NCBI GenBank assembly: GCA_963665665.1
Contig: OY762428.1
Coordinates: forward strand, 3,144,323-3,208,322
Length of the DNA stretch: 64,000 bases
Origin: Candidatus Kapaibacterium sp.
GTDB taxonomy: Bacteria > Bacteroidota > Ignavibacteria > Kapaibacteriales > UBA2268
Direction of reading: 5' to 3'
Shown: piece after piece, positions 5,846 through 64,000 of the stretch
Layout: the number at the start of each line of letters is the position of its first letter
How positions within the stretch are numbered: position 1 is the first letter of the stretch
Notes under the pieces: model-generated
What the model was told of the DNA's origin: nothing
The model's input: only the letters and a program-made list of their open reading frames with translations
Database searches by the model: none
Program-made: the position numbers and the translations under genes

Positions 5846-6307
5846 ATGGCAAAAATTGAATTCAAAGACCTCGAACAGAATGCAGAACTTGATGCCGATG
5901 CAATGAAAAAAGTTGTAGGCGCAGGCCTTTACGACAAATCAACCGGTGTATATGGAAATACCGGACATAAGCATGGCGGTGATGCTACAAATCAGGGCGA
6001 TCAGGCCGGCGGAGCCGGTGGAGCCGGTGGAAGTTCGCGGGGTTCAACCTGGGGCTGGAACCAGGGCGGCGGCGGCGGAAGCGCATCGCAATCTGCCGGT
6101 GGCGGCGGCGGTGGCTGGCTTAGTGCCGGCGGCGGCGGTTCCATTACTAATTCCAATGCTACAGGCGGAGCCGGTGGTGGTGTAACTGATATTGGCGCTG
6201 TAGGCGGTGCCGGCGGTGCCGGTGGCGCTGCTGTAGGAGCTATGGGCGGTGCTGTATCAGACCAGATTACTAATTCTGTCAGCATCCCGGTAACTATGAA
6301 TATCTAA
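5846..6307 (+). CDS. Glycine-rich peptide precursor with a double-glycine-type leader (bacteriocin/microcin-like)
   Basis: Leader MAKIEFKDLEQNAELDADAMKKVVGAG, then a ~125-aa core (about one third Gly, plus Ser/Thr/Asn/Ala, no Cys). The C-terminal SIPVTMNI is shared with 6898..7317. RBS-like gagagga lies upstream. Confidence 0.6.
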   Translation: MAKIEFKDLEQNAELDADAMKKVVGAGLYDKSTGVYGNTGHKHGGDATNQGDQAGGAGGAGGSSRGSTWGWNQGGGGGSASQSAGGGGGGWLSAGGGGSITNSNATGGAGGGVTDIGAVGGAGGAGGAAVGAMGGAVSDQITNSVSIPVTMNI

Positions 6308-6378
6308 GTTCATTTAAAGATGATTTTTTATACCCGGGATATTAGTATTCCGGGTTTATTTTTTTAACTGGAAAAAAA

Positions 6379-7512: not shown

Positions 7513-9753
7513 ATGAATAAACGCTACTTAATTATCGCGGGTATTTCTATTTCGCTGATAGCAATGGAAATTTCCTGGACTCGTATTTTTTCTGCCGAAT
7601 TCTTCTATACCTTTGCTTTTTTGATATTATCTACGGCTGTTCTCGGCATAGGGCTCGGAGGGCTTGCTCTTCGATATGTTAAAGCATTCAACCGTGACGT
7701 AGTGGCAAATCTGTCTATGTCATTGTCAGGTTTGTTTATTTTGCTGGGGCCTGTTCTTGTATTTCAGATAAATCCGGAATTCACAAAGATATTTGCCGGA
7801 TTAACTGATTTTCTGAAGGTATTCAGTTCCGGAATAATTCTCGGGCTTCCCTATTTCTTTGGGGGTATGGCACTCAGTTATTTATTTAAGAAAAATTACA
7901 GTGATATGCCCAGGATGTACATGTGGGATATGGCCGGTGCGGCATTTGGAGTAATAATTGCTATTGCTGCAATGAATATTTGCGGCACTCCGAGGGCTGT
8001 AACATATACTGCTATGCCCATTTTATTTGCCGGGCTTATTGCATCCGGGAATTGGCAAAAGATTATTCCTGCAATATTAATTATTGCAACTGCAATTGGC
8101 GGATTCTTTTCTGAAGATATGCTTCAAAAACAAAACAGGCAGGAAAGAGCAAAGGTTATTTATACTCATTGGGATGCAATGGCGAAAGTAAAAATGTACG
8201 ATTTCGAAGGCCAATACAGGGGGCTGAATATTGATAATGTTGCCAATTCACCGGTTTTTCCGTTTGACGGGGAAATTGACAGGCCGGATTCTTTGAAGTA
8301 TCATTTCAATATTAATGTCGGAAATTTGATTCGTATGTTCGATTCTTGTAGATTTCTTTCGCTTGGCGCCGGTGGCGGCGGTGATGTCCTAATGGCATTG
8401 CAGGAAGGCGCTGCCGAGATTCACGCCGTAGAGGTGGTTCCGCATATTAATGATATGATGACAGAAGGGATGCTATCAGAATATACCGGCAATATGTATA
8501 ATTTACCACAGGTGAAAGTTGTAACAGAAGATGCCCGGGCTTACAGCCGAATGTTCGAAAATAAATTTGATATAATATATTCTTTAAGTTCCAATTCCTG
8601 GGCTGCACTTGCCTCAGGGGCATTTGCCCTTGCCGAGAATTACCTGTTCACCGAGGAGGCTTTCCGGGATTACTGGAATGCTTTAAGCGATAAAGGGTTT
8701 ATGAGCATGGAACATCAGTTCTATATGCCGAGAATTGCAACAATGGTGGAACAGGCGCTTTGGAAAGAAGGGGTTGACGATCCTGACAAACACTTTGCTA
8801 TATATCATCTTCCGCACATGAGAAGAATGCTTCTTCTGCTTTCAAAAAGAGAATTGACTCCTGAGCTTTTGGCTGCTGCTTACGGTAGTTCTGTACCAAA
8901 CAGGAGGGACTATAAGTATTTACTTTATCCGGCAGCTGATTCACTGAAAGGCAACCTGATAAACAGGATAGTTACCGAAGGCTGGGAAAATGTACAGGAT
9001 TCTGCACATGCAGATATTTCTCCATGTTCCGATGACAGGCCATTCATAGCTCAGCTCGGTTTGTGGAAAAATTTCAAATCTGACAATATGGAACAACTGC
9101 CGCAATACGAATTTATGGGTTATCCGTTGTCCAAGCTGATCATTTTAATGATATTGGCATTAGCGCTGATAATTATACTACCGTTAAATTTAATACCTTT
9201 TGCGTTTAAATCTTCAAGGCTCGGGATTCGGCCATGGATGTATTTTTTTATGATAGGTATGGGATTTATGATAATAGAGGTGATATTAATTCAGCAGTAC
9301 TCCCTGTTTATCGGGCCATCTGTATGGAGCATTATTACCGTGCTTTTCACCATGCTGATTGCTTCCGGTATCGGCAGCCGCTATTCGGAAATGTTTGCTG
9401 ATAAAATTGTGTTCATGGCAATAATTGCCTGGGTAGCGCTCAATATTCTTGTTTTTACAAACCTGTTCGGAGTTTTTGGCGGGCTTCCTTTAGTACCGCG
9501 TATGCTGATTTCAGCAATAATGATAGCCCCGGGTGGTTTTTTCATGGGTATGCCTTTTCCAAAAGCTGCACAGAAAGTCGGTGAAAATGTGGACTGGGGC
9601 TTTGCCGTGAATGGTATGGCCTCGGTTCTTGGTTCTACCGGGATACTTCTGGTAGCATTCGAGTTCGGATTTGATATATCACTTGTTGTGGGCGCCTTGT
9701 GCTATTTAATTGCTATGTTTTTATCGGGTTTTAATAAACCTGTACAGGCATAA
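7513..9753 (+). CDS. Polytopic membrane protein with a fused spermidine-synthase-like (aminopropyltransferase) domain
   Basis: N- and C-terminal multi-TM regions; central LSLGAGGGGDVLMAL...VEVVPHINDMM...DIIYSLSSNSW resembles the SpeE GGGDG and acidic-site motifs. Confidence 0.6.
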   Translation: MNKRYLIIAGISISLIAMEISWTRIFSAEFFYTFAFLILSTAVLGIGLGGLALRYVKAFNRDVVANLSMSLSGLFILLGPVLVFQINPEFTKIFAGLTDFLKVFSSGIILGLPYFFGGMALSYLFKKNYSDMPRMYMWDMAGAAFGVIIAIAAMNICGTPRAVTYTAMPILFAGLIASGNWQKIIPAILIIATAIGGFFSEDMLQKQNRQERAKVIYTHWDAMAKVKMYDFEGQYRGLNIDNVANSPVFPFDGEIDRPDSLKYHFNINVGNLIRMFDSCRFLSLGAGGGGDVLMALQEGAAEIHAVEVVPHINDMMTEGMLSEYTGNMYNLPQVKVVTEDARAYSRMFENKFDIIYSLSSNSWAALASGAFALAENYLFTEEAFRDYWNALSDKGFMSMEHQFYMPRIATMVEQALWKEGVDDPDKHFAIYHLPHMRRMLLLLSKRELTPELLAAAYGSSVPNRRDYKYLLYPAADSLKGNLINRIVTEGWENVQDSAHADISPCSDDRPFIAQLGLWKNFKSDNMEQLPQYEFMGYPLSKLIILMILALALIIILPLNLIPFAFKSSRLGIRPWMYFFMIGMGFMIIEVILIQQYSLFIGPSVWSIITVLFTMLIASGIGSRYSEMFADKIVFMAIIAWVALNILVFTNLFGVFGGLPLVPRMLISAIMIAPGGFFMGMPFPKAAQKVGENVDWGFAVNGMASVLGSTGILLVAFEFGFDISLVVGALCYLIAMFLSGFNKPVQA

Positions 9754-10526: not shown

Positions 10527-11357
10527 TTAATTATCCCTGATCTTTGCATCGACTTTACCCCGAACACCTGAATATTTTGTAAGCTCGGCCCCGACATATC
10601 CTATCAGTATTTTTGTGGCTACCTTCACCGGAATTTTCCTGTCATCATCAGTAAGCCACACAAGAATTTTACCTTCGCTTTTAAACAGCCCGCCTTTAAC
10701 AACCATTGGCTCGACAACTACGCATTTAAACTCTCCGGCTTTTACTTCAATTGTCTGCCTGCCCCGAATTTTCACTCCGAGCTGGTAAGTAGAATCCTTG
10801 TAGAAATTCTTCAGCATAATAGTGCTGTCCTTTGGAATATTTTTCAGGTCCATAGTCCGCACGTAAAACAAAGCAGAAACAATATCATGAACATAGGGCG
10901 GGATATCAAAAGTATCGGTTTTCTTTTTATTGCGGGTATATGCCTTATGATTTTGCTGGTCGAAATCGGCATACATATCTCTTTTATATTTTCCTTCGCG
11001 AATATGCTGTTCGAAAAGATAGGGGAATATCCCGCCAATATCAATTACAGTCCTGTAGGCGTCTTTCACCCGGTATAGCATATCAAGAGCTGGAAGAGAC
11101 CTTACCTCGAAGCGGATATCATAGCATTTTCTGCCGTCGATAACCACAGGTTCCGGCAGAATATGGAAATATCCCGTTCCGGCAGTAATAAATTTGTAAC
11201 CAACATCGTATTCAAGTTTCTCTCCAAGTCCGAATGCTTCGTTCGGAACGTAGCGGTACGAAGGAGTTTCAAAGTCGGATTTTTCCTGTGCAGTAGAAAG
11301 GGAATGAATTCCGGCCACAGAAAATATTATCAGTATTATTTTAAAAATTTTATGCAT
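10527..11357 (-). CDS. Secreted DUF3108-like protein
   Basis: Signal peptide; architecture and conserved patches resemble the Bacteroidota DUF3108 family; co-oriented with the LolA-like gene with a 4-nt gap. Confidence 0.4.
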   Translation of the reverse strand: MHKIFKIILIIFSVAGIHSLSTAQEKSDFETPSYRYVPNEAFGLGEKLEYDVGYKFITAGTGYFHILPEPVVIDGRKCYDIRFEVRSLPALDMLYRVKDAYRTVIDIGGIFPYLFEQHIREGKYKRDMYADFDQQNHKAYTRNKKKTDTFDIPPYVHDIVSALFYVRTMDLKNIPKDSTIMLKNFYKDSTYQLGVKIRGRQTIEVKAGEFKCVVVEPMVVKGGLFKSEGKILVWLTDDDRKIPVKVATKILIGYVGAELTKYSGVRGKVDAKIRDN

Positions 11358-11874
11358 GATAATTATCTTTATTAAAAAAATTAATTTACATTATTCTTTG
11401 CAAACCGGCAAGATTAATTTTGAAGTATAGATTTTGACGGTTATCAATTATATTTTCACATTTTTCTTTTTTGCCAGGGTATGCAGTGCTTGTTTTAAAT
11501 TCCTGATGATATATTAATCCTGTTTCAACATTCAGCCTGCTCCCTTTTTTACCTGACGGCTGAAGAAAAAGAAATTGTCGATCCTTATATTATAAACGGT
11601 TGAAATTTCCAAAGGTTCATAATTTTCAAGTGAAATTATGTAATCGGCTCTTTTAATTGAGGCCCTTAATATTATTCTTTTGCCATTAGGAACGAAATTC
11701 CGAGAGTTTTTTTATGCCGGCATCCAAAGCTTCAAAATAAATTATTGAAGGCATATTTTAACACGCGTACATATATATCCGGCGCATCCCGGGTAAATAT
11801 TCTTCCGGTAAATTTGAACACGGGAGTCAAATAATTTTATAATTTCCGGGCTTCTGAAAAGAAAGATTTCAACT

Positions 11875-49725: not shown

Positions 49726-52149
49726 TTACCTGTTTATTTGCAAAGATTTATTATCAATAATAATTCGACCGTCTTTTGTTAGTAGAATTATATTAACAAT
49801 ATACTGACCGGACGGCAAAGAAGCAACATCCAAAGAAATATCATTACTGTTTTGCGATAAGTTTTTGACGCTTTCGTCTATATACTTTTTGCCATTGCCA
49901 TCGTAAATTACTACGGATATTTCTTTTGGAGATTTTGCGCCTATATATAGGTTTATGACATCAATTGCAGGATTTGGGAATATCCCGTCCGAATCAAAAG
50001 ATTTGTTATTTTTTATGTTGGGATATAAAGTTTTGCCGCTGATAATTATTGTCGGAGCATCATAAGAATCACGTCCCGGATCATCCGCAATCTTAGCTTT
50101 ACATGCGCTTACTTTCCACGAACCGGCTGGAGGTGGGACAGATTGAACCCCCATCCAGCATTCATAAGCTCTTTGGTCATTAACATATTGCACAACATTA
50201 ATTGAGTCCCATTCGTTGTTACCATTCAGTTTATATATCTTGTAATAATCCTCAGCATTCTTATATAAATCAGGAGATTCTTTATCCCAGGAATAATTGA
50301 TATCGTCATCGTAAGAGCGACTTTGCCAATGGAAAACAAAACCATTAGCATCATTTGTATAATGTAATCCTTTGATCTGTGCAGACCGCATAGTAGCTAT
50401 CGGCTGACTTAATGAATACATGTTGTCAAAAATAAGATCCATTGATTCTTCAAGCTCATCGTTAGGAACAATATAAGCTTTGAAGGAATTATAAAATTCA
50501 TTTTTTGGAATAGTTTGTTCTCTGGGTTCAGATGATTTCAGATCGGGAAATAAACTGACAAACTCAAATAGAATTCGACCCAATGAAACATCTTCATTAT
50601 CTAATCCAAAGAAAGGGCTTGCTCCAAAATCTGAATCATCATAACAATCATATAAATTGTGCATTAAACCTGCCATTCTGGAAATTCTCTGCTTATAATC
50701 CCAACGGGATCCATTGGTTCCCCATGGAGCAACCTTAGGAAAACGCCTCCCTTGTGAATCAAACCTGAACGGATCGGCTTCATACGAGTATGAAGTATTG
50801 TAATACTCATAATCATAATTATTTGAAGCCCATTGCTGGCATTCTTCAGCAAAAAATCTTGCAAATCCTTCACTAAAAGTTTGAGTTCCAGGTATACCAG
50901 TAGTAGGCCTACCAGCCATACTATGATGTACATAATGAGCATATTCATGATACATAACAATTATATAATTGTCACAGGAAATAGTTGTCATAAGATCAGC
51001 ATTACTAGCTGAATACTGACCGGATATGTTTGTTTGAGTGCCCCAAAAAAATCTAATACATGGTATGTCGAAAGACATATTATTGTCAAATACAGCTTTA
51101 ATGAATTCGTTTGCAATTGTGTTATACCTTAATGCTCTCCCTTCAAGTTTTCTCATTTGCAAATCAACATTATTAACTGTGTAAGATGTTGTAGAATTAT
51201 TGATAGGAATTACAGATCTGGCATCTTTACTTTCTGACAATAGAGACTGTGATCTATAATTAGAATTTACATTATGCACTACATCAAATATATCAGTTTC
51301 AGTCATAAAGATAACATCATTTTCAAGGCTGGCTACAATTAGTATTTCCCAATTTTCTTGATCATCAAATTCAAATCCTGAAAATGAGAAATTAAATTGG
51401 TAATTACCATCTTTATCACATTTGGCATAATGTATTCCTTCTATATACTCAGCTGTTGAACCAGACCCTGAAAGTGGAACTGGATGATATAATCGCCAGT
51501 ATTCCTCTCCTATAGGAATCTTTTTCTCTCTGAACCACAGCCTTACATAAGGAAAAGTTGTGTAGTCTTCACAACCATCAAATTTATTCCAATCACCATA
51601 AGTAACATTTCCTGAAATATTGAATGTATAGACGTTTGAAATAGATGGATTTAAAAAGGAAGTAGTAAGTATTTCATAGAATTCATAATTTTCAAATGGT
51701 ATATCCAGTTCTATACCAGATAATGGATCACTGTGTGTCGAAATTGTAGTAGCAACATCAACCGTAAAATCAATTTGTTCACCATTTTCGAAATTTGGGG
51801 ATAGATTTTGAATATCCAATCGAATACTTGCAAGTCCCGTATCCTGAACTATTAGTTCATAATCGACTGTGTATGTCGAACTTTCTTGTACAACATGATA
51901 ATCGAAAATTCTTTTTTCTGTGTTTGAAGCATCCTCATCCTTATAAACTGGATCAAAAGAAATTCCTACCCAAAGAGTATCAGTAACATTAGCTTCGAAA
52001 ACAGCTCGAACAGTAACAGTATCCCCTAAAATCGGATCGTCAATAACAGAAAATGAACTTAGATTAGCAAGCGGAGGATCAGGAAAGGATTCTGATCTCA
52101 AAGTACTAATTAAAAATAAAAAACATAAGAAAACACATAAGTATTTCAT
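49726..52149 (-). CDS. Secreted putative zinc metalloprotease (HExxH) with a type-A T9SS C-terminal domain
   Basis: IVMYHEYAHYVHHSMAG zincin-like motif; C-terminal IFPNPAIDVINLYIG...LPSGQYIVNIILLTKDGRII. Confidence 0.5.
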   Translation of the reverse strand: MKYLCVFLCFLFLISTLRSESFPDPPLANLSSFSVIDDPILGDTVTVRAVFEANVTDTLWVGISFDPVYKDEDASNTEKRIFDYHVVQESSTYTVDYELIVQDTGLASIRLDIQNLSPNFENGEQIDFTVDVATTISTHSDPLSGIELDIPFENYEFYEILTTSFLNPSISNVYTFNISGNVTYGDWNKFDGCEDYTTFPYVRLWFREKKIPIGEEYWRLYHPVPLSGSGSTAEYIEGIHYAKCDKDGNYQFNFSFSGFEFDDQENWEILIVASLENDVIFMTETDIFDVVHNVNSNYRSQSLLSESKDARSVIPINNSTTSYTVNNVDLQMRKLEGRALRYNTIANEFIKAVFDNNMSFDIPCIRFFWGTQTNISGQYSASNADLMTTISCDNYIIVMYHEYAHYVHHSMAGRPTTGIPGTQTFSEGFARFFAEECQQWASNNYDYEYYNTSYSYEADPFRFDSQGRRFPKVAPWGTNGSRWDYKQRISRMAGLMHNLYDCYDDSDFGASPFFGLDNEDVSLGRILFEFVSLFPDLKSSEPREQTIPKNEFYNSFKAYIVPNDELEESMDLIFDNMYSLSQPIATMRSAQIKGLHYTNDANGFVFHWQSRSYDDDINYSWDKESPDLYKNAEDYYKIYKLNGNNEWDSINVVQYVNDQRAYECWMGVQSVPPPAGSWKVSACKAKIADDPGRDSYDAPTIIISGKTLYPNIKNNKSFDSDGIFPNPAIDVINLYIGAKSPKEISVVIYDGNGKKYIDESVKNLSQNSNDISLDVASLPSGQYIVNIILLTKDGRIIIDNKSLQINR

Positions 52150-56921: not shown

Positions 56922-58034
56922 CTATCCTCTTATCCGATTAATAAGCTGTTTCCAGAAATTATACTTTACGCCGAGATTCAATGCAATATGTGTTCTGCCC
57001 ACATTCAACGGGGGAATTCCAAGATTCTCGTGCCCTGTGCTGAATACCAGGTCGTCCTCGAAAGAGTGGTACAGCGAGAAACCAAGGGTGAATTCGAGTG
57101 GTACACGCCCCGCTGGCTGCCCGGCAAAATATCCGAAATCGAATTTAAGGCCTTTCCAGTCGAAACTGCCAAGATCACGGTTGTAAATATTACCCTTGCC
57201 CCAGAAATAGCCGAGCCCTACCCTGAAACCGTCGTGATAATCACCACTGCCGAATATTGGTTTTATAGTGCTGCTGAGCCCCATGGAATTTATATGGCTT
57301 TCCCATTTTTCGCTTATGTTATCCCTTGTACCGGGAAAATAGGACAATGTTGTAATTTTAGGTGCGGAATATTCATACCAGAAGTCAAGCCCGGGCCAGA
57401 ATCCGAGAAGCTTATATGCATTTACGTTAAGCCTCAGGCTAAGCCAGGGATCGTTTTCAACCACGTTATCACCATTCGATATAAACATGTTTTCACTAAC
57501 AACCACCGACATAACAGTAATTTTTTCTTCTTCGGGCGCATTGTATTCTTCCTCGAGTCTTTTCAAGCGTTTATTGCAAAGCCTTTCACTTTCGTTGATC
57601 AGCCTTGCCTGCTCTTCAATGCAATTGTGCTTGATCTGCCAGCATGTATCAATATAATACTTAACGGTATCAGCCAGAAGTTTCCTGTAATAACTTGCCG
57701 GATGTTCCGGCAGGGATATTATCTGTTCTTCAAGTTTTTTTGAAATGAAGTGGTATCGTTTAATATATTTGATATCAAGATCCTCAAGCTGGTCGAAAGT
57801 AGGGGCTGAAAATTTTATTACAGGTTCATAACCAAGAAATACCAGCTGGTTCTTTAATTCCATGGCAGTGTTATAGTAATCCATAATTAACTTTGTAAAA
57901 AGGCCCTCGCTGTCCTCGTAGAGTTCAAGTTCAGAATCAGGCGGGAGTGGCGGAGTTTCTACAACAGGTTCGGCAGCATTTATCAGCCAGGCTGATAAAA
58001 AGCTTGTGATCAATATAAGGATAAGTTTTCTCAT
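56922..58034 (-). CDS. Hypothetical secreted or outer-membrane protein, co-transcribed with the TPR-LRR gene
   Basis: Signal peptide LITSFLSAWLINAAEP; beta-rich C-terminal third; 3-nt gap to the downstream gene. Confidence 0.4.
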   Translation of the reverse strand: MRKLILILITSFLSAWLINAAEPVVETPPLPPDSELELYEDSEGLFTKLIMDYYNTAMELKNQLVFLGYEPVIKFSAPTFDQLEDLDIKYIKRYHFISKKLEEQIISLPEHPASYYRKLLADTVKYYIDTCWQIKHNCIEEQARLINESERLCNKRLKRLEEEYNAPEEEKITVMSVVVSENMFISNGDNVVENDPWLSLRLNVNAYKLLGFWPGLDFWYEYSAPKITTLSYFPGTRDNISEKWESHINSMGLSSTIKPIFGSGDYHDGFRVGLGYFWGKGNIYNRDLGSFDWKGLKFDFGYFAGQPAGRVPLEFTLGFSLYHSFEDDLVFSTGHENLGIPPLNVGRTHIALNLGVKYNFWKQLINRIRG

Positions 58035-58671: not shown

Positions 58672-59898
58672 ATGTCAACAAAACTTATCAGCCCACACGG
58701 AAGCCCGGAATTAATCGAATTGTTACTTTCCGGCGACGAACTTAAGGCAGAGCAGGAAAAAGCTGCCGGTTTAATGAAAGTAAACGTCACAAGCCGTGAA
58801 GCGGGTGACCTTATCATGCTTGGAATCGGTGGTTTTACACCTCTAACAGGCTTCATGGGTAAGGAAGACTGGAAGAGCGTATGCTCAGATATGAAAATGC
58901 CGAGCAAAGATGGTTTGTTCTGGCCGATCCCGGTTACTCTTTCAGTAACGAAAGAAGAAGCCGACAAAATGAACATTGGTGATGAAATCGCATTGTATTC
59001 AGAAGAATATGGCGAGATCATGGCAACAATGAAAGTTGAAGAAAAATACTCGATCGACAAAGAATTCGAATGTCAGCATGTTTACAAAACAGCTGAAATG
59101 GAACACCCCGGTGTAAAAATGGTTATGGAACAAAAAGAAGTTAACCTGGCCGGCCCGGTTAAAGTTCTTTCCGAAGGCCCGTTCCCGACAGAATTCAAAG
59201 GTATCTATCAGAGGCCGAGCGAATCAAGAGCAGTTTTCGAGAAAAAAGGATGGAAAACAATCGCAGCTCTTCAGCTCAGAAACCCGATGCACCGCAGCCA
59301 CGAATTCCTGGCAAAGATAGCTTTGGAAGTTTCAGACGGCCTTTATATTCACCAGCTGGTTGGTAAACTGAAACCAGGTGATATACCCGCAGACGTCAGG
59401 GTGAACTGTATAAATACCCTTGTTGATTACTATTTCGTAAAAGATTCAGTGCTTACAGGCGGTTATCCTCTGGATATGCGTTATGCAGGCCCGCGCGAAG
59501 GCCTTCTTCACGCTCTCTTCCGCCAGAACTTTGGCTGTACTCACATGATTATTGGCCGCGACCATGCCGGTGTTGGCAACTATTACGGCCCGTTTGACGC
59601 ACAGGATATTTTTGACGAGCTTTGGGAAGGCGCACTTCTTTGCAAGCCATTGAAAATTGACTGGACATTCTGGTGCTACAAATGCGGCGGTATGGCTTCA
59701 ATGAAAACCTGCCCGCACTCAAAAGAAGACAGGCTTCTGCTTTCCGGTACAATGCTGCGTAAAGGCCTTTCGGAAGGTGCAGATATTCCGGCAGAATTCA
59801 GCCGTCCTGAAGTACTCAAGATATTGAGGGAATACTATGGCGGACTGAAAGAAAAAGTTGAAGTGAAACTTCACCGCGGCGCCACAGGCGAAGGCTGA
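58672..59898 (+). CDS. sat: Sulfate adenylyltransferase (ATP sulfurylase), dissimilatory type
   Basis: [13 protein letters not shown] and GRDHAGVG motifs, C-terminal Cys cluster, 408 aa. Confidence 0.85.
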
Positions 59899-59999
59899 TA
59901 GACTTTAGTAGTAAAGTTATAAACAGGAAATTAATTATATCCTGGCTATATAAATAATATTTCAATTAACCTAGTTAAATCACAAACAGGAGAACAAAC

Positions 60000-60437
60000 A
60001 TGCCAAGTTATGTTATCCAGGAAAAATGCGACGGATGTAAAGCGCTTGACAAAACTGCATGCCAGTACATCTGCCCTAATGACCTCATGGTACTTAACAA
60101 AGAAGCAATGAAGGCTTTCAATCTTGAGCCTGAAATGTGCTGGGAATGCTACAACTGCGTAAAAATTTGCCCTCAGCAGGCTATTGAAGTTCGCGGTTAT
60201 GCAGACTTTATGCCCCTCGGTGGCGTAGTAACACCGATGAGAAGCTCCGATTCTATCATGTGGACAATTAAATTCCGTAATGGAACTCTTAAACGCTTCA
60301 AATTCCCGATCCGTACAACACCGGAAGGTTCTGCCGTTCCTAATGGCGGTTGGGATACTTGTAAAGAAGATGATGTATCCAGCCCGTTCCTTTATACAGA
60401 GCCGGATTCACTTCGTACAGAGTTGTTCACGAAATAA
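60000..60437 (+). CDS. aprB: Adenylylsulfate (APS) reductase beta subunit
   Basis: N-terminal CDGCK...C..ICP and CWECYNCVKICP two-[4Fe-4S] ferredoxin motifs plus the AprB-specific tail. Confidence 0.8.
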   Translation: MPSYVIQEKCDGCKALDKTACQYICPNDLMVLNKEAMKAFNLEPEMCWECYNCVKICPQQAIEVRGYADFMPLGGVVTPMRSSDSIMWTIKFRNGTLKRFKFPIRTTPEGSAVPNGGWDTCKEDDVSSPFLYTEPDSLRTELFTK

Positions 60438-60475
60438 TTGATTGTAATTAATTAAATAGATTAGGAGAAATTCAC

Positions 60476-62347
60476 ATGGCTAATTTCGAAACTGTAGAAG
60501 TCACCACTGATTTTCTAATCATTGGTGGTGGTATGTCAGCTTGCGGTGTTGCCGTTGAAGCAGCATACTGGGCAAAGAAACACAACCTTAAGGTTACAAT
60601 GGTTGACAAAGCTGCTGTTGACCGCTCTGGCGCTGTTGCTATGGGCCTCTCAGCTATCAACCAGTACGTTGATCTGAAAAGTGGAAACAACACAATTAAA
60701 GATTATGTAGATTACGTTCGCAATGACCTCATGGGCATTACCCGTGAAGATCTCGTTGCTAATATCGCTCGTCACGTTGACGGTTCGGTTCACCTTTTTG
60801 AAAAATGGGGACTTCCGATCTGGACAGACGAAAATGGCGATTACGTTCATGAAGGCCGCTGGCAGCTCATGATCAATGGCGAATCATATAAAGTTATCGT
60901 TGCTGAAGCAGCTAAAAATGCTCTTGGTATCGAAAACATTTACGAAAGAGTATTTATCGTAGAACCTCTGATGGATGGCGACAAAGTTTCTGGCGCCGTT
61001 GGTTTCAGTGTTCGCGAAAATAAATTCTATGTATTCAAAGCCAAAGCCGTTTATATCGGTGCTGGTGGCGCTGTTCACGTATTCAAACCAAGGTCAACTG
61101 GTGAAGGTCTCGGCCGTGCATGGTATCCGCCGTGGAACTCAGGTTCTTCAGCATACTTCACAATCAAAGCCGGTGCTGAAATGACATGTCAGGAAGTTCG
61201 TTTTATTCCTGTACGTTTCAAAGATGCTTATGGCCCGGTTGGTGCATGGTTCCTTCTCTTCAAATCAAGAGCTATTTCAGCTGTTGGCGGCGAGTACATG
61301 GCCGAAAGAAGAGACGAACTTGAAAAATGGCTTCCCTACGGTAAAGTTAAACCAATGCCTGCTAACTTGCGTAACTGGCTTGGTATGATGGATACTATGG
61401 AAGGTAAGGGTCCGGTTTATATGAAGACTGAAGAAGCTATCCAGAATATTGCAAATGCATACAAAGATGATCCTAAGGGATACAAGAAGAAAATGAAAGA
61501 ACTTGAAGCCGAAGCATGGGAAGACTTCCTTGATATGACTATCTCCCAGGCTCTCCTTTGGGCTTCCACAGATATCTTCCCCGAAAAAGAACCATCAGAA
61601 ATCGCAGCTGCAGAACCATACTTTATCGGTTCTCACTCCGGTGCTTCCGGCGCTTGGGTATCAGGCCCGAAAGACCTTGCTCCTGCAGAATATTTCTGGG
61701 GCTATCCGAACATGACAACAACTAAAGGCCTTTTTGCTGCCGGTGATGCTTCCGGTGCATCAAGCCATAAGTTCTCATCAGGTTCACACGCTGAAGGCCG
61801 TATTGCCGGTAAAGGCGCTATCGAATACATCGTTAAAGAAAATCCGACTCACAACTATGACGATGCTGCTATCACAGCACTGCAGGAAAAAATCCTGAAA
61901 CCTTTGGATATTTACGAACAGTTTGGTAAAGAAACAACTGATCCTAACATCAACCCGAACTATATACGTCCGAAGATGTTTATGTTCCGTCTTCAGAAAA
62001 TTATGGATGAATACGCAGGTGGTGTATCAGCTCAGTTCATGACTAACCAGTTCTTACTTGAAAAAGGCCTCCATCTTCTCAACTTCCTTAAAGAAGATGC
62101 AGAAAAACTCGCTGCTGAAGATATTCACGAACTCATGAGGGTTTGGGAAAATGTTCACAGGATGTGGCAGGCTGAAGCTCACGTTCGCACAATCCTCTTC
62201 CGCGACGAAACTCGCTGGCCGGGTTACTACTACAGAGCAGACAAACCCGAAATTAAAGAAGATTGGGAAAAATTCGTGAACCTGACTTATGATGAAAAAG
62301 AAGACAAATGGAATATGTTCACAAAAGACATCCATCACATCTTCTAA
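60476..62347 (+). CDS. aprA: Adenylylsulfate (APS) reductase alpha subunit (FAD flavoprotein)
   Basis: DFLIIGGGMSACGVAVEAA FAD-binding N-terminus; 623 aa fumarate-reductase-like flavoprotein immediately after aprB. Confidence 0.85.
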   Translation: MANFETVEVTTDFLIIGGGMSACGVAVEAAYWAKKHNLKVTMVDKAAVDRSGAVAMGLSAINQYVDLKSGNNTIKDYVDYVRNDLMGITREDLVANIARHVDGSVHLFEKWGLPIWTDENGDYVHEGRWQLMINGESYKVIVAEAAKNALGIENIYERVFIVEPLMDGDKVSGAVGFSVRENKFYVFKAKAVYIGAGGAVHVFKPRSTGEGLGRAWYPPWNSGSSAYFTIKAGAEMTCQEVRFIPVRFKDAYGPVGAWFLLFKSRAISAVGGEYMAERRDELEKWLPYGKVKPMPANLRNWLGMMDTMEGKGPVYMKTEEAIQNIANAYKDDPKGYKKKMKELEAEAWEDFLDMTISQALLWASTDIFPEKEPSEIAAAEPYFIGSHSGASGAWVSGPKDLAPAEYFWGYPNMTTTKGLFAAGDASGASSHKFSSGSHAEGRIAGKGAIEYIVKENPTHNYDDAAITALQEKILKPLDIYEQFGKETTDPNINPNYIRPKMFMFRLQKIMDEYAGGVSAQFMTNQFLLEKGLHLLNFLKEDAEKLAAEDIHELMRVWENVHRMWQAEAHVRTILFRDETRWPGYYYRADKPEIKEDWEKFVNLTYDEKEDKWNMFTKDIHHIF

Positions 62348-62369
62348 TTCACACGATTAATTTCGGCAA

Positions 62370-62389
62370 TCCCGGGCATTTGCCCGGGA
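62370..62389 (+). terminator. Hairpin terminator after aprA
   Basis: tcccgggc-attt-gcccggga followed by an AT/T-rich tail (weak T-tract). Confidence 0.45.
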
Positions 62390-62444
62390 TGCCGTAATAT
62401 TTTAGCTCTTTGAATAATTTGATTACTTAATACGCGAGGAAATA

Positions 62445-62516
62445 ATACAAAATTCAGTCGCGATAGCCAGGTTAATTGAAATCATAGTAGTGATTAGCCG
62501 CGTCTGAATTTTGTAT
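62445..62516. repeat. 72-nt imperfect palindrome (18-nt arms, 17/18 complementary, 36-nt spacer) between aprA and the downstream genes
   Basis: atacaaaattcagtcgcg ... cgcgtctgaattttgtat. Confidence 0.7.
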
Positions 62517-62642
62517 TTGAACCCCGCAGAAATCCCTATACGAACCAGAAGCTATTTCTTATAAATGATTATGGCATGTTACTTATTTGTTTTAGTGTAA
62601 TGGTTCTTCAAGGGTATCTGTAAATAAACGATAGGAATTGAA

Positions 62643-62912
62643 ATGGAAAAACTTATATGCAAGCATTGCGGCGCCGAACTTAGCAAAGTTCTTATGCCCA
62701 AGGAATCCGACTGGGGGGTTGAATACTTCTTTATTTGTATGAATGATGAATGCTCCTATTTCGTAAGGGGTTGGGACTGGATGATGGAACGTTTCAGCGT
62801 AAAGTCATCCTACAGGTTCAAAATCGATCCTGAAACTGGTGCCTCAGGGCCCATTCCGGTTACATCCCCCGACGATATGAAAAATTGGGTAGTACACAAA
62901 TTTGAAGAATAG
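62643..62912 (+). CDS. Small hypothetical Cys-containing (zinc-ribbon-like) protein
   Basis: CKHCGAEL...CMNDEC; RBS-like aggaattgaaATG. Confidence 0.4.
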   Translation: MEKLICKHCGAELSKVLMPKESDWGVEYFFICMNDECSYFVRGWDWMMERFSVKSSYRFKIDPETGASGPIPVTSPDDMKNWVVHKFEE

Positions 62913-62917
62913 GAGTA

Positions 62918-63742
62918 ATGATGAAAAAACAATATGATATGAATGCAAAGAAGGCTTTACAGGAAAAAATTCTTGAAGATTTTCCCAGAATGAAAAAAAC
63001 TGACAAGTTTCGGTTTGCCTGCAATCCTTCTGTTGAATGCTTTAATAAATGCTGTAATGATGTTAATATTTTTCTTACCCCTTATGATATTATCAGGCTT
63101 AAAAACAGGCTTGGTATATCATCAACTGAATTTTTAAGAAAATATACTCTTCTTCCGCTTGATGAAAATCTTCAGCATCCGGTGGTTATGTTCAGAATGC
63201 AGGACGACACACTGAATTGCCATTTTGTTTCGGACAAAGGCTGCACAGTGTATGAAGACAGGCCCTGGGCCTGCCGTATGTTCCCCGTTGGTATTGCATC
63301 GCCGAAGGATGGTAATGAAGATCTGGACGAGGAATTCTATTTTCTGCTGAAGGAAGATGTCTGCCAGGGATTCGACCAGGGGAAAGAATGGACTATTGAA
63401 GAATGGATGAATGACCAGCAGGTTGAGGATTATATAGAAATCGGCGACCTTTTTAAAGAAATATCATTACACGAGAGGTTCAGGAGCAAACGCCCCATGG
63501 AACCCGTTAAACTGGAAATGTTCTACACCGTCTGCTACGATATTGATAAGTTCAGGGATTTGGTATTTAACAGCACGTTTTTTAAGAGATTCAAAGTTAG
63601 CGGCGAGATGAAAGATAAGATGATGAACGACGACGTGGAACTGCTCAGGTACGGTTTTAAATTCCTCAGGTTCAGCCTTTTTGGCGAAAAAACGCTTGAC
63701 CTGCAGGATGAGTACCAAAAGAAAGTGATGAACGAGAAATAA
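62918..63742 (+). CDS. YkgJ/UPF0153-like putative Fe-S or Zn-chelating protein (CxnCxxxCC motif)
   Basis: FACNPSVECFNKCCNDVN...LNCHF...GCTVYEDRPWACRMFP. Confidence 0.45.
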   Translation: MMKKQYDMNAKKALQEKILEDFPRMKKTDKFRFACNPSVECFNKCCNDVNIFLTPYDIIRLKNRLGISSTEFLRKYTLLPLDENLQHPVVMFRMQDDTLNCHFVSDKGCTVYEDRPWACRMFPVGIASPKDGNEDLDEEFYFLLKEDVCQGFDQGKEWTIEEWMNDQQVEDYIEIGDLFKEISLHERFRSKRPMEPVKLEMFYTVCYDIDKFRDLVFNSTFFKRFKVSGEMKDKMMNDDVELLRYGFKFLRFSLFGEKTLDLQDEYQKKVMNEK

Positions 63743-63774
63743 AAACCTTTATAAATTTTTAAAGGGACAATAAA

Positions 63775-64000
63775 TTGAGCGAAAGAAAAAACGTCGGAAC
63801 AGACCTTGAATTTATCAGGTATCTGAAGGAACATGGCGGCGAAACAATGAAAAAGTGCTATCAATGCGCTACTTGTTCCGTTGTATGTGAACTTTCACCA
63901 AAAGAATACGCTTTTCCGAGAAAAGAAATGATCCAGGCTGCCTGGGGACAAAAGGAAAAACTAATTTCCGACCCGGACATCTGGCTATGCCATGGCTGTA
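63775..64000 (+). CDS. HdrC/QmoC-like 4Fe-4S cluster-binding protein, 5' part only (TTG start; runs off the window end)
   Basis: MSERKNVGTDLEFIRYLKEHGGETMKKCYQCATCSVVCELSP has a CxxCxxCxxxC(P) ferredoxin-like motif; RBS aaaggga. Confidence 0.4.
   Translation, partial: MSERKNVGTDLEFIRYLKEHGGETMKKCYQCATCSVVCELSPKEYAFPRKEMIQAAWGQKEKLISDPDIWLCHGC

Follow-up and report, generated by a model that had tools for sequence, protein, structure and literature searches.

Two cysteine-rich proteins encoded between aprA and the qmo genes in a Kapabacteria-type sulfate-reduction locus, and a conserved RNA hairpin in front of them

The route by which adenosine 5′-phosphosulfate (APS) reductase receives its electrons has long been missing from the bioenergetics of sulfate respiration, and a locus from Candidatus Kapaibacterium sp. 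raises the question of whether two small genes, placed between those of APS reductase (AprBA) and of the Qmo complex, have a part in it. The DNA analysed, referred to as the window, is a stretch of 64,000 nucleotides (nt) of assembly GCA_963665665.1 (contig OY762428.1, positions 3,144,323–3,208,322, forward strand). At its end, the + strand carries sat-aprB-aprA, a terminator-like hairpin, a conserved RNA hairpin, a gene for a zinc-ribbon protein (zn89), a ykgJ-like gene and qmoC, the last being truncated where the window stops. Together they make up the 5′ part of a Kapabacteria/Ignavibacteria-type dissimilatory sulfate-reduction locus, and confidence in the identity of the locus and in its conservation is very high. 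The pair formed by zn89 and the YkgJ-like protein is most likely, as predicted from sequence, a cytoplasmic metal-binding accessory of the electron path through Qmo and AprBA. This reading as a whole, which blends the identity and conservation of the locus with a role for the pair, is given a probability of roughly 0.6.

The spread of the pair was followed in two sets of loci. A scan of GTDB species genomes with the YkgJ-like protein found a relative in 432, and in the best 80 loci, all of which were examined, the order aprB-aprA-zn89-ykgJ is kept in 80 of 80 as far as the contigs reach, the sole interruptions being an hppA or an NYN/LOTUS gene between aprA and zn89. The second set, seeded with AprA, holds 80 metagenome loci (AprA 71–88% identical, GC content 36–68%), 62 of which continue for at least 1.3 kilobases (kb) after aprA; zn89-ykgJ directly follows aprA in 55 of these 62, and two have a YkgJ-like gene at another place. 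The preliminary description of this DNA had suggested that the two genes might be accessories of the Apr system, unless they proved absent from all other apr loci and hence a lineage-specific insertion. Co-occurrence with other apr loci was checked, and the pair stands after aprA in the 80 genome loci and the 55 metagenome loci, so it is linked to Apr/Qmo and is no lineage-specific insertion.

zn89 and ykgJ abut or overlap in nearly all loci (the median spacing is 13 nt for the genome loci and −8 nt for those from metagenomes), and the median spacing between ykgJ and qmoA, taken over 37 loci, is −4 nt, with a 4-nt overlap in most; the gap between aprA and zn89 is always at least 53 nt and holds a strong hairpin. 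Together, these features place the pair in the translation unit of qmo, set off from sat-aprBA by a terminator-like structure, with zn89 translationally coupled to ykgJ, and ykgJ to qmoA. High-GC lineages have the order aprB-aprA-zn89-ykgJ-qmoA-qmoB-qmoC, i.e. the pair precedes a contiguous qmoABC. Because most of the environmental loci sampled have the pair placed between aprA and qmo, overlapping qmoA, its members are candidates for a missing partner of the two enzymes.

Such an arrangement could also be an accident of history, in which an unrelated pair was fixed once beside aprA in an ancestral island and has hitch-hiked with it through lateral transfer. The carrier loci all encode closely related AprA proteins (71–89% identity), so that the spread of a single ancestral island is plausible, and YkgJ-like paralogues do occur in unrelated contexts. 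However, the neighbours have been reshuffled often (qmoAB lies upstream, downstream or at a distant site, qmoC downstream or divergent, hppA or NYN genes are inserted, dsr genes are present or absent) while zn89-ykgJ stays after aprA, and the overlapping start and stop codons with qmoA have been maintained. Furthermore, purifying selection acts strongly on both proteins: 41 columns are invariant among 85 YkgJ-like sequences, and zn89 keeps a conserved motif. The hitch-hiker account is consequently considered improbable.

The table lists the features of the locus. The open reading frames (ORFs) that had been named as sat, aprB, aprA and two genes for Cys-rich proteins lie where they were described, and family scans confirmed their identities.

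Table 1. Genes and RNA elements of the sulfate-reduction locus at the end of the window, and copies of the AU-rich hairpin in related loci (aa, residues)
Feature	Position	Strand	Basis
sat, dissimilatory ATP sulfurylase, 408 aa	58672-59898	+	PF01747, PF14306 (PUA_2), NF003166
aprB, APS reductase beta subunit, 145 aa	60000-60437	+	TIGR02060, PF12139
aprA, APS reductase alpha subunit, 623 aa	60476-62347	+	TIGR02061, 1JNR_A
GC-rich stem-loop with T-run, terminator-like, directly after aprA	62365-62401 (hairpin 62365-62393)	+	fold −27.1 kcal/mol
AU-rich long hairpin, stem of ~19-23 bp, variable loop	62438-62528	+	inverted repeat, fold, covariation
zn89, zinc-ribbon protein, 89 aa, first 'hyp' gene	62643-62912	+	four Cys, PF04606
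ykgJ-like, YkgJ/CxxCxxCC-family protein with C-terminal helical domain, 274 aa, second 'hyp' gene	62918-63742	+	PF03692
qmoC, N-terminal HdrC-like 2x[4Fe-4S] domain, cut by window end	63775-64000	+	81% identity to L001 protein
AU-rich hairpin copies in relatives	L003 1974-2036; L016 9603-9667; L008 9607-9672; L002 775-877; L094 2247-2316		covariance model

The zn89 protein has Cys residues at positions 6, 9, 32 and 37, in a C-x2-C-x22-C-x4-C spacing over residues 6–47, and the four Cys are invariant. As the protein is short, a word-indexed search returned only 12 matches, and the counts of zn89 given here rest on tblastn within the loci. Its match to the Ogr/Delta zinc-finger family (PF04606) is marginal, at 27.5 bits against a gathering threshold of 26.3, and several homologues have the same match precomputed. 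The pair might be regulatory, with zn89 as an Ogr/Delta-type zinc-finger transcription factor and the YkgJ-like protein as a redox or metal sensor that together control qmo or dsr; the Cys spacing and the PF04606 score speak for such a role, as does the position of the pair just downstream of conserved hairpins, at a boundary internal to the operon. zn89 nevertheless differs from the Ogr/Delta zinc finger in its conserved C-terminal half, its genomic context and its coupling to enzyme genes, and the assignment has no structural support. Regulation is considered an improbable function of the pair. No solved structural relative was found for either protein. Neither contains a long hydrophobic segment, which is consistent with soluble proteins on the cytoplasmic side. 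AprBA, QmoAB and the HdrC-like domain of QmoC are placed on the same side of the membrane.

The YkgJ-like protein matches PF03692 over its N-terminal ~100 residues (38.8 bits, gathering threshold 23). It shares the conserved Cys set of that family and differs from it in an extra helical C-terminal domain (residues ~160–274), which is confidently modelled, with a predicted local distance difference test (pLDDT) of 90–98. Eight Cys are invariant in 13 family members that are 29–64% identical, in the pattern C-x5-C-x3-CC ... C-x7-C-x9-C-x29-C. Kinship with HdrB/CCG proteins or ferredoxins was considered and rejected: a Pfam scan of the 13 members at E ≤ 5 returns PF03692 only, and the CC dipeptide is followed by N, G, S, A, H, Y, Q, R or I, with no conserved G, so that the sequences lack the CCG motif (CXnCCGXmCXXC). 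No biochemical function described for any PF03692 member was found in the literature searched.

A database clustered at 90% identity contains 2061 homologues of the YkgJ-like protein. The best 120 of these 2061 are all at least 56% identical to it and ~265 aa long, and the named sources among them are Kapabacteria, Ignavibacteria, Bacteroidetes and Zixibacteria; the nearest match outside the source itself is 76% identical. An exhaustive HMMER search of 1.84 billion representatives delimited a two-domain subfamily (~250–290 aa) of 160 clusters at E ≤ 1e-30. Among the members placed on contigs, those above ~220 bits are linked to apr/qmo, down to three proteins of 40–43% identity that are flanked by aprA and then, where the contig suffices, by qmoABC: P0138 (aprBA-ykgJ-qmoABC-sat, without zn89), P0139 (aprA-zn89-ykgJ-qmoABC-dsrAB) and P0142 (directly after aprA). 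Just below this score, members are found in unrelated contexts, beside CstA (P0143), beside transporters (P0146), adjoining a radical S-adenosylmethionine (SAM) gene and a hydrogenase (P0144), or adjoining NikR and Feo genes (P0156).

The association with radical-SAM enzymes recurs in the wider family, where paralogues are fused to a radical-SAM domain (P0254, 690 aa) or encoded beside a radical-SAM gene, directly after it (P0144; L084 2861–4849). Radical-SAM enzymes require a low-potential electron donor, and the fusion and adjacency therefore hint, by analogy, that the wider YkgJ-like family may serve as a redox partner.

The same paralogues would also fit a role in iron–sulfur (Fe-S) cluster delivery, and hence an explanation in which the pair is a maturation or assembly factor for AprBA or Qmo (Fe-S or flavin adenine dinucleotide insertion, or a chaperone) that stands outside the electron path. 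A Cys-rich protein could hold a transferable cluster, and the adjacency of the pair to aprA is stricter than that to any single qmo gene; in Zixibacteria-type loci, for instance, the pair stands after aprA, yet qmoC is encoded divergently and qmoAB is upstream or at another site. On the other hand, in most high-GC loci ykgJ shares 4 nt with qmoA and zn89 overlaps ykgJ, which suggests stoichiometric co-production, a feature less typical of catalytic maturases. The canonical AprBA and Qmo of Desulfovibrio and Chlorobaculum mature without such factors, and there is no similarity to known Fe-S carriers, e.g. Nfu, IscA and ApbC. Maturation is therefore viewed as unlikely, although it is the best placed of the alternatives.

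The gene that follows the pair had first been taken for an HdrC-like gene in the place of a contiguous qmoABC. Its ORF begins with a TTG codon and has 75 residues in the window, with a CxxCxxCxxxC motif at residues 28–38 and CxxC at residues 72–75; over 74 aa it is 81% identical to the N-terminus of the 418-aa protein encoded after ykgJ in L001, the nearest of the related loci. Because that protein passes the qmoC equivalog model NF038018 (389 bits, cut-off 300), the truncated gene is identified by homology as qmoC itself, with no HdrC-like substitute, and qmoAB is merely unlinked in this clade. No qmoA, qmoB or dsr gene was found by match search within the 64-kb window. In place of the canonical layout, where qmoA and qmoB come right after aprA, the window has zn89, ykgJ-like and then qmoC. 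The position of qmoAB varies among the relatives: elsewhere in the genome in the Kapabacteria type, directly upstream of sat in Ignavibacteria-type loci, directly after zn89-ykgJ in L053 and most high-GC metagenome loci, and after qmoC in L059.

Downstream of qmoC, the closest relatives with long contigs (e.g. L001, L005, L006, L008, L009 and L094) carry dsrAB-dsrD-dsrN-hyp-dsrL-dsrC; for L001, Pfam and NCBIfam scans confirmed DsrA, DsrB, DsrN, DsrL and DsrC. A dsr part downstream of the window's qmoC is predicted from these and from published loci. The hyp gene between dsrN and dsrL encodes a 145-aa protein (hyp145; L001 16308–16745) that is present in ~20 Kapabacteria-type loci and has no Pfam or NCBIfam match; it corresponds to the third 'hyp' of the locus of Thiel et al. 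2019 (PMC6338057).

Among the genes upstream of the pair, Sat scores 511 bits with NF003166 (cut-off 387) and contains PF01747 and the PUA-like PF14306; wherever a related locus is long enough to include it, sat is nearly always found upstream of aprB and on its strand, and a few metagenome loci have it downstream or divergent. AprB scores 203 bits with TIGR02060 (cut-off 136) and 119 bits with PF12139, has Fer4 domains, and aligns over residues 1–143 with Archaeoglobus fulgidus AprB (1JNR_B). Its gene is directly upstream of aprA, with a gap of 38 nt. AprA reaches 881.5 bits with TIGR02061 (cut-off 641.75), and its matches to solved structures score 782 bits (A. fulgidus 1JNR_A) and 627 bits (3GYX_A).

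Several neighbours and records in the related loci are worth recording. hppA, which encodes a membrane-bound H+/Na+ pyrophosphatase, lies between aprA and zn89 in L039 (7568–9688) and also in L041, L044, L046, L048, L050, L051 and L056, and its insertion in this subset of Ignavibacteria loci fits the disposal of pyrophosphate made by Sat. At the same place in L001 (8301–9716), just downstream of the conserved hairpin, is a 471-aa gene product with NYN and OST-HTH/LOTUS domains, of RNA-binding or nuclease type. The aprA matches of L044 (5567–7436) and L048 (5511–7384), both on long-read contigs of metagenome-assembled genomes (MAGs), come in several pieces, from sequencing-error frameshifts or pseudogenes. 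On the Zixibacteria chromosome L061, the pair is followed, on the opposite strand (10890–11798, −), by a gene of the DVU0298 family (NF045662), which takes its name from a Desulfovibrio protein. Many third-party MAG records with apr loci like those of Kapabacteria and Ignavibacteria (L001, L003–L005, L007, L009, L014–L016 and others) are titled 'uncultured Hyphomicrobiales bacterium', a taxonomic label that looks wrong or like a placeholder.

The 295-nt spacer between aprA and zn89 in the window contains two hairpins. The first lies where a terminator had previously been noted after aprA, and is a GC-rich, terminator-like stem-loop with a T-run behind it. Almost every one of ~75 related loci, across phyla, has a strong GC-rich hairpin (as a rule −20 to −33 kcal/mol) at most 120 nt after aprA, conserved in position and not in sequence. 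This suggests a terminator internal to the operon, or an mRNA stabiliser, that sets the expression of AprBA relative to Qmo.

The second hairpin corresponds to what had been described as a 72-nt palindrome. An inverted repeat is indeed present, but it measures 74 nt, with 19-nt arms (62444–62462 and 62499–62517, one mismatch) and a 36-nt spacer, and it is part of a conserved RNA hairpin. Folded as RNA, it has a minimum free energy of −27.3 kcal/mol (z = −5.3). Both arms, 5′-TGGAATATnAAATTCAGnnGC and GCnnCTGAATTTnGTATTTCAAC-3′, recur in the spacers of the nearest relatives, where they enclose a loop of 9 to ~90 nt. In L004 the loop (~6270–6360) is filled by short tandem repeats (GAAGACTGAAGACGGAAGAC...), so that it tolerates large insertions.

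In an alignment of 14 homologous spacers, restricted to the arms with the loops trimmed by hand, 87.6% of cells pair, against 30–48% when the partner is slid by one to three columns; 12 of 23 pairs have changed on both sides, and no shuffle reached the covariation score. These statistics are supportive and short of proof, since the hairpin guided the making of the alignment and its sequences share ancestry. Besides its seeds, a covariance model run over 1.56 megabases of loci picked up 14 new copies, each of them in the spacer between aprA and zn89, with a lone off-site match on the + strand at E = 0.5; the copies found with the model number 26, every one at this position. Scores are far higher on the + than on the − strand, which is what G-U pairing in the sense RNA would produce. 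The compensatory changes and the + strand G-U pairs indicate that this is a conserved, covarying RNA structure, which is restricted to Kapabacteria-type loci (L001–L031 and L094) and has no Rfam match at E ≤ 1. Two other identities were considered for the palindrome. A repeated mobile element is ruled out, as it is unique in the window, and an operator for a dimeric protein is unlikely, as the distance between the arms varies from 9 to ~90 nt and many G-U pairs form on the + strand only. It may be a processing or stability element, such as a target of RNase III, where the sat-aprBA message gives way to the downstream one.

A working model can be drawn from these elements. The hairpins after aprA would most likely set the level of an abundant sat-aprBA message relative to that of zn89-ykgJ-qmo, and the pair would be produced in concert with the subunits of Qmo. 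zn89 and the YkgJ-like protein may form a cytoplasmic metal-binding heterodimer, in which the YkgJ-like subunit is probably an Fe-S cluster carrier and zn89 a structural zinc ribbon. Acting at the interface of Qmo and AprBA, the heterodimer would be an extra electron-transfer or docking subunit between the menaquinol-oxidising Qmo complex and AprB, and a second low-potential donor might feed AprB through it. Ramos et al. 2012 (PMC3333476) found that purified QmoABC and AprAB bind tightly but pass no electrons from menaquinol analogues on to APS; electron confurcation with a third partner was proposed. A place of the pair in the electron path fits the slot left open by that work, since binding was seen without transfer and a third partner was called for. 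The specific role in electron transfer or docking is nevertheless put forward tentatively, as something that could well prove otherwise.

A number of observations weigh against such a role. The genes of the pair are absent from classical sulfate reducers (Desulfovibrio) and from green sulfur bacteria, which run AprBA-QmoABC, and in five of the 62 AprA-seeded loci aprA is followed directly by qmoA; the pair is thus no universal requirement. Some lineages have the YkgJ-like gene without zn89, and the pair has no qmo neighbour on its own strand in loci of the Zixibacteria type. Close YkgJ-like paralogues (36–41% identity) occupy unrelated contexts. PF03692 is annotated only as 'putative zinc- or iron-chelating', and metal binding, complex formation and redox activity of the pair are predictions.

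A bolder form of the electron-path reading is correspondingly less probable, and doubtful as a whole. In it, the two proteins would be true extra subunits of a variant Qmo-AprBA supercomplex that dominates in uncultured sulfate reducers (Acidobacteria-like high-GC lineages, Kapabacteria, Ignavibacteria and Zixibacteria). Fe-S clusters held by the eight Cys would bridge QmoA/B to AprB or take up electrons from a second, low-potential donor, as the 'third partner', and the ratio of AprBA to the complex would be set by the spacer hairpin as a new RNA element acting in cis.

The remainder of the window bears on the source organism. It had been described as bearing a type IX secretion system (T9SS), and four large secreted proteins of the window do have the T9SS C-terminal sorting domain PF18962 (17070–19358, 33276–36827, 47403–49721 on the − strand and 49726–52149 on the − strand), which places the source in the T9SS-bearing Fibrobacteres–Chlorobi–Bacteroidetes (FCB) group. 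One of the four combines a BNR/sortilin-like propeller with Ig and fn3 domains. Two ORFs of the window have no Pfam match at E ≤ 1e-4, one of 746 aa (7513–9753, + strand) and one of 370 aa (56922–58034, − strand); the latter is directly upstream of sat on the opposite strand and adjoins the gene of a leucine-rich-repeat-like protein.

So far mentioned only as 'conserved hypothetical', the pair provides concrete, cloneable candidates for the third partner or for a lineage-specific solution. The lineages that carry it are abundant in soils, sediments, aquifers and hot springs, and it could act as a metagenome marker by which this variant of Apr/Qmo is told apart from the classical type. The conserved hairpin would be a small case of intra-operon regulation. 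The value of the locus lies in the pair as a widespread, uncharacterised and, by gene spacing, translationally coupled companion of Apr/Qmo in the majority of environmental loci of this AprA clade, together with the spacer hairpin.

Compared with the canonical clusters of Chlorobaculum tepidum (sat-aprBA-qmoABC) and Desulfovibrio vulgaris (aprBA-qmoABC-DVU0851), the window has orthologous Sat, AprB, AprA and QmoC and serves the same pathway step, in which APS reduction or oxidation is coupled to the quinone pool through Qmo. The canonical clusters lack the two extra genes between aprA and qmo, and in the window qmoC is separated from qmoAB. Equivalence of either protein to DVU0851, compared by description only, is rejected, DVU0851 being reported in the literature to lack homologues beyond Desulfovibrio. 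The QmoAB-HdrBC and QmoAB-HdrD variants, known from Gram-positive sulfate reducers and from some sulfur oxidisers (Neukirchen et al. 2023, PMC10504309), also combine Qmo with an extra Cys-rich cluster-binding protein whose gene adjoins those of Qmo; in contrast to these, the pair has no CCG/HdrB similarity, and QmoC is retained rather than replaced.

The closest known system is the locus sat-aprBA-hyp-hyp-qmoC-dsrABD-dsrN-hyp-dsrL-dsrC, with qmoAB elsewhere, reported by Thiel et al. 2019 in 'Candidatus Thermonerobacter thiotrophicus' and related MAGs (PMC6338057). As far as the window reaches, its gene order is identical. Two records named after MAGs of that study, L002 (ChocPot_Mid) and L019 (MS-B_bin-24), have the same order as the window, with orthologues 84–86% (AprA), 56–68% (zn89), 63–74% (YkgJ-like) and 69–85% (QmoC N-terminus) identical, and L002 has the conserved spacer hairpin too. 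The organism differs from the source of the window, the nearest YkgJ-like match being as distant as given above. Acidobacteria, too, are established carriers of dissimilatory sulfur genes beyond the classical sulfate reducers (Hausmann et al. 2018, PMC6018796); the supplements of that study leave its 'syntenic genes 1–4' unnamed. A pathway outside classical sulfate reducers and green sulfur bacteria, which the preliminary description had held to be noteworthy in itself, was therefore already published (PMC6338057, PMC6018796). A literature search found no paper that joins YkgJ to qmoC or relates YkgJ proteins to apr/qmo, and none that addresses the identity of the two 'hyp' genes. The gene order and its taxonomic setting are thus known from these systems; what the present locus adds to them is the spread of the pair, its place before a contiguous qmoABC in high-GC lineages, its set of Cys residues and the conserved hairpin in the spacer.

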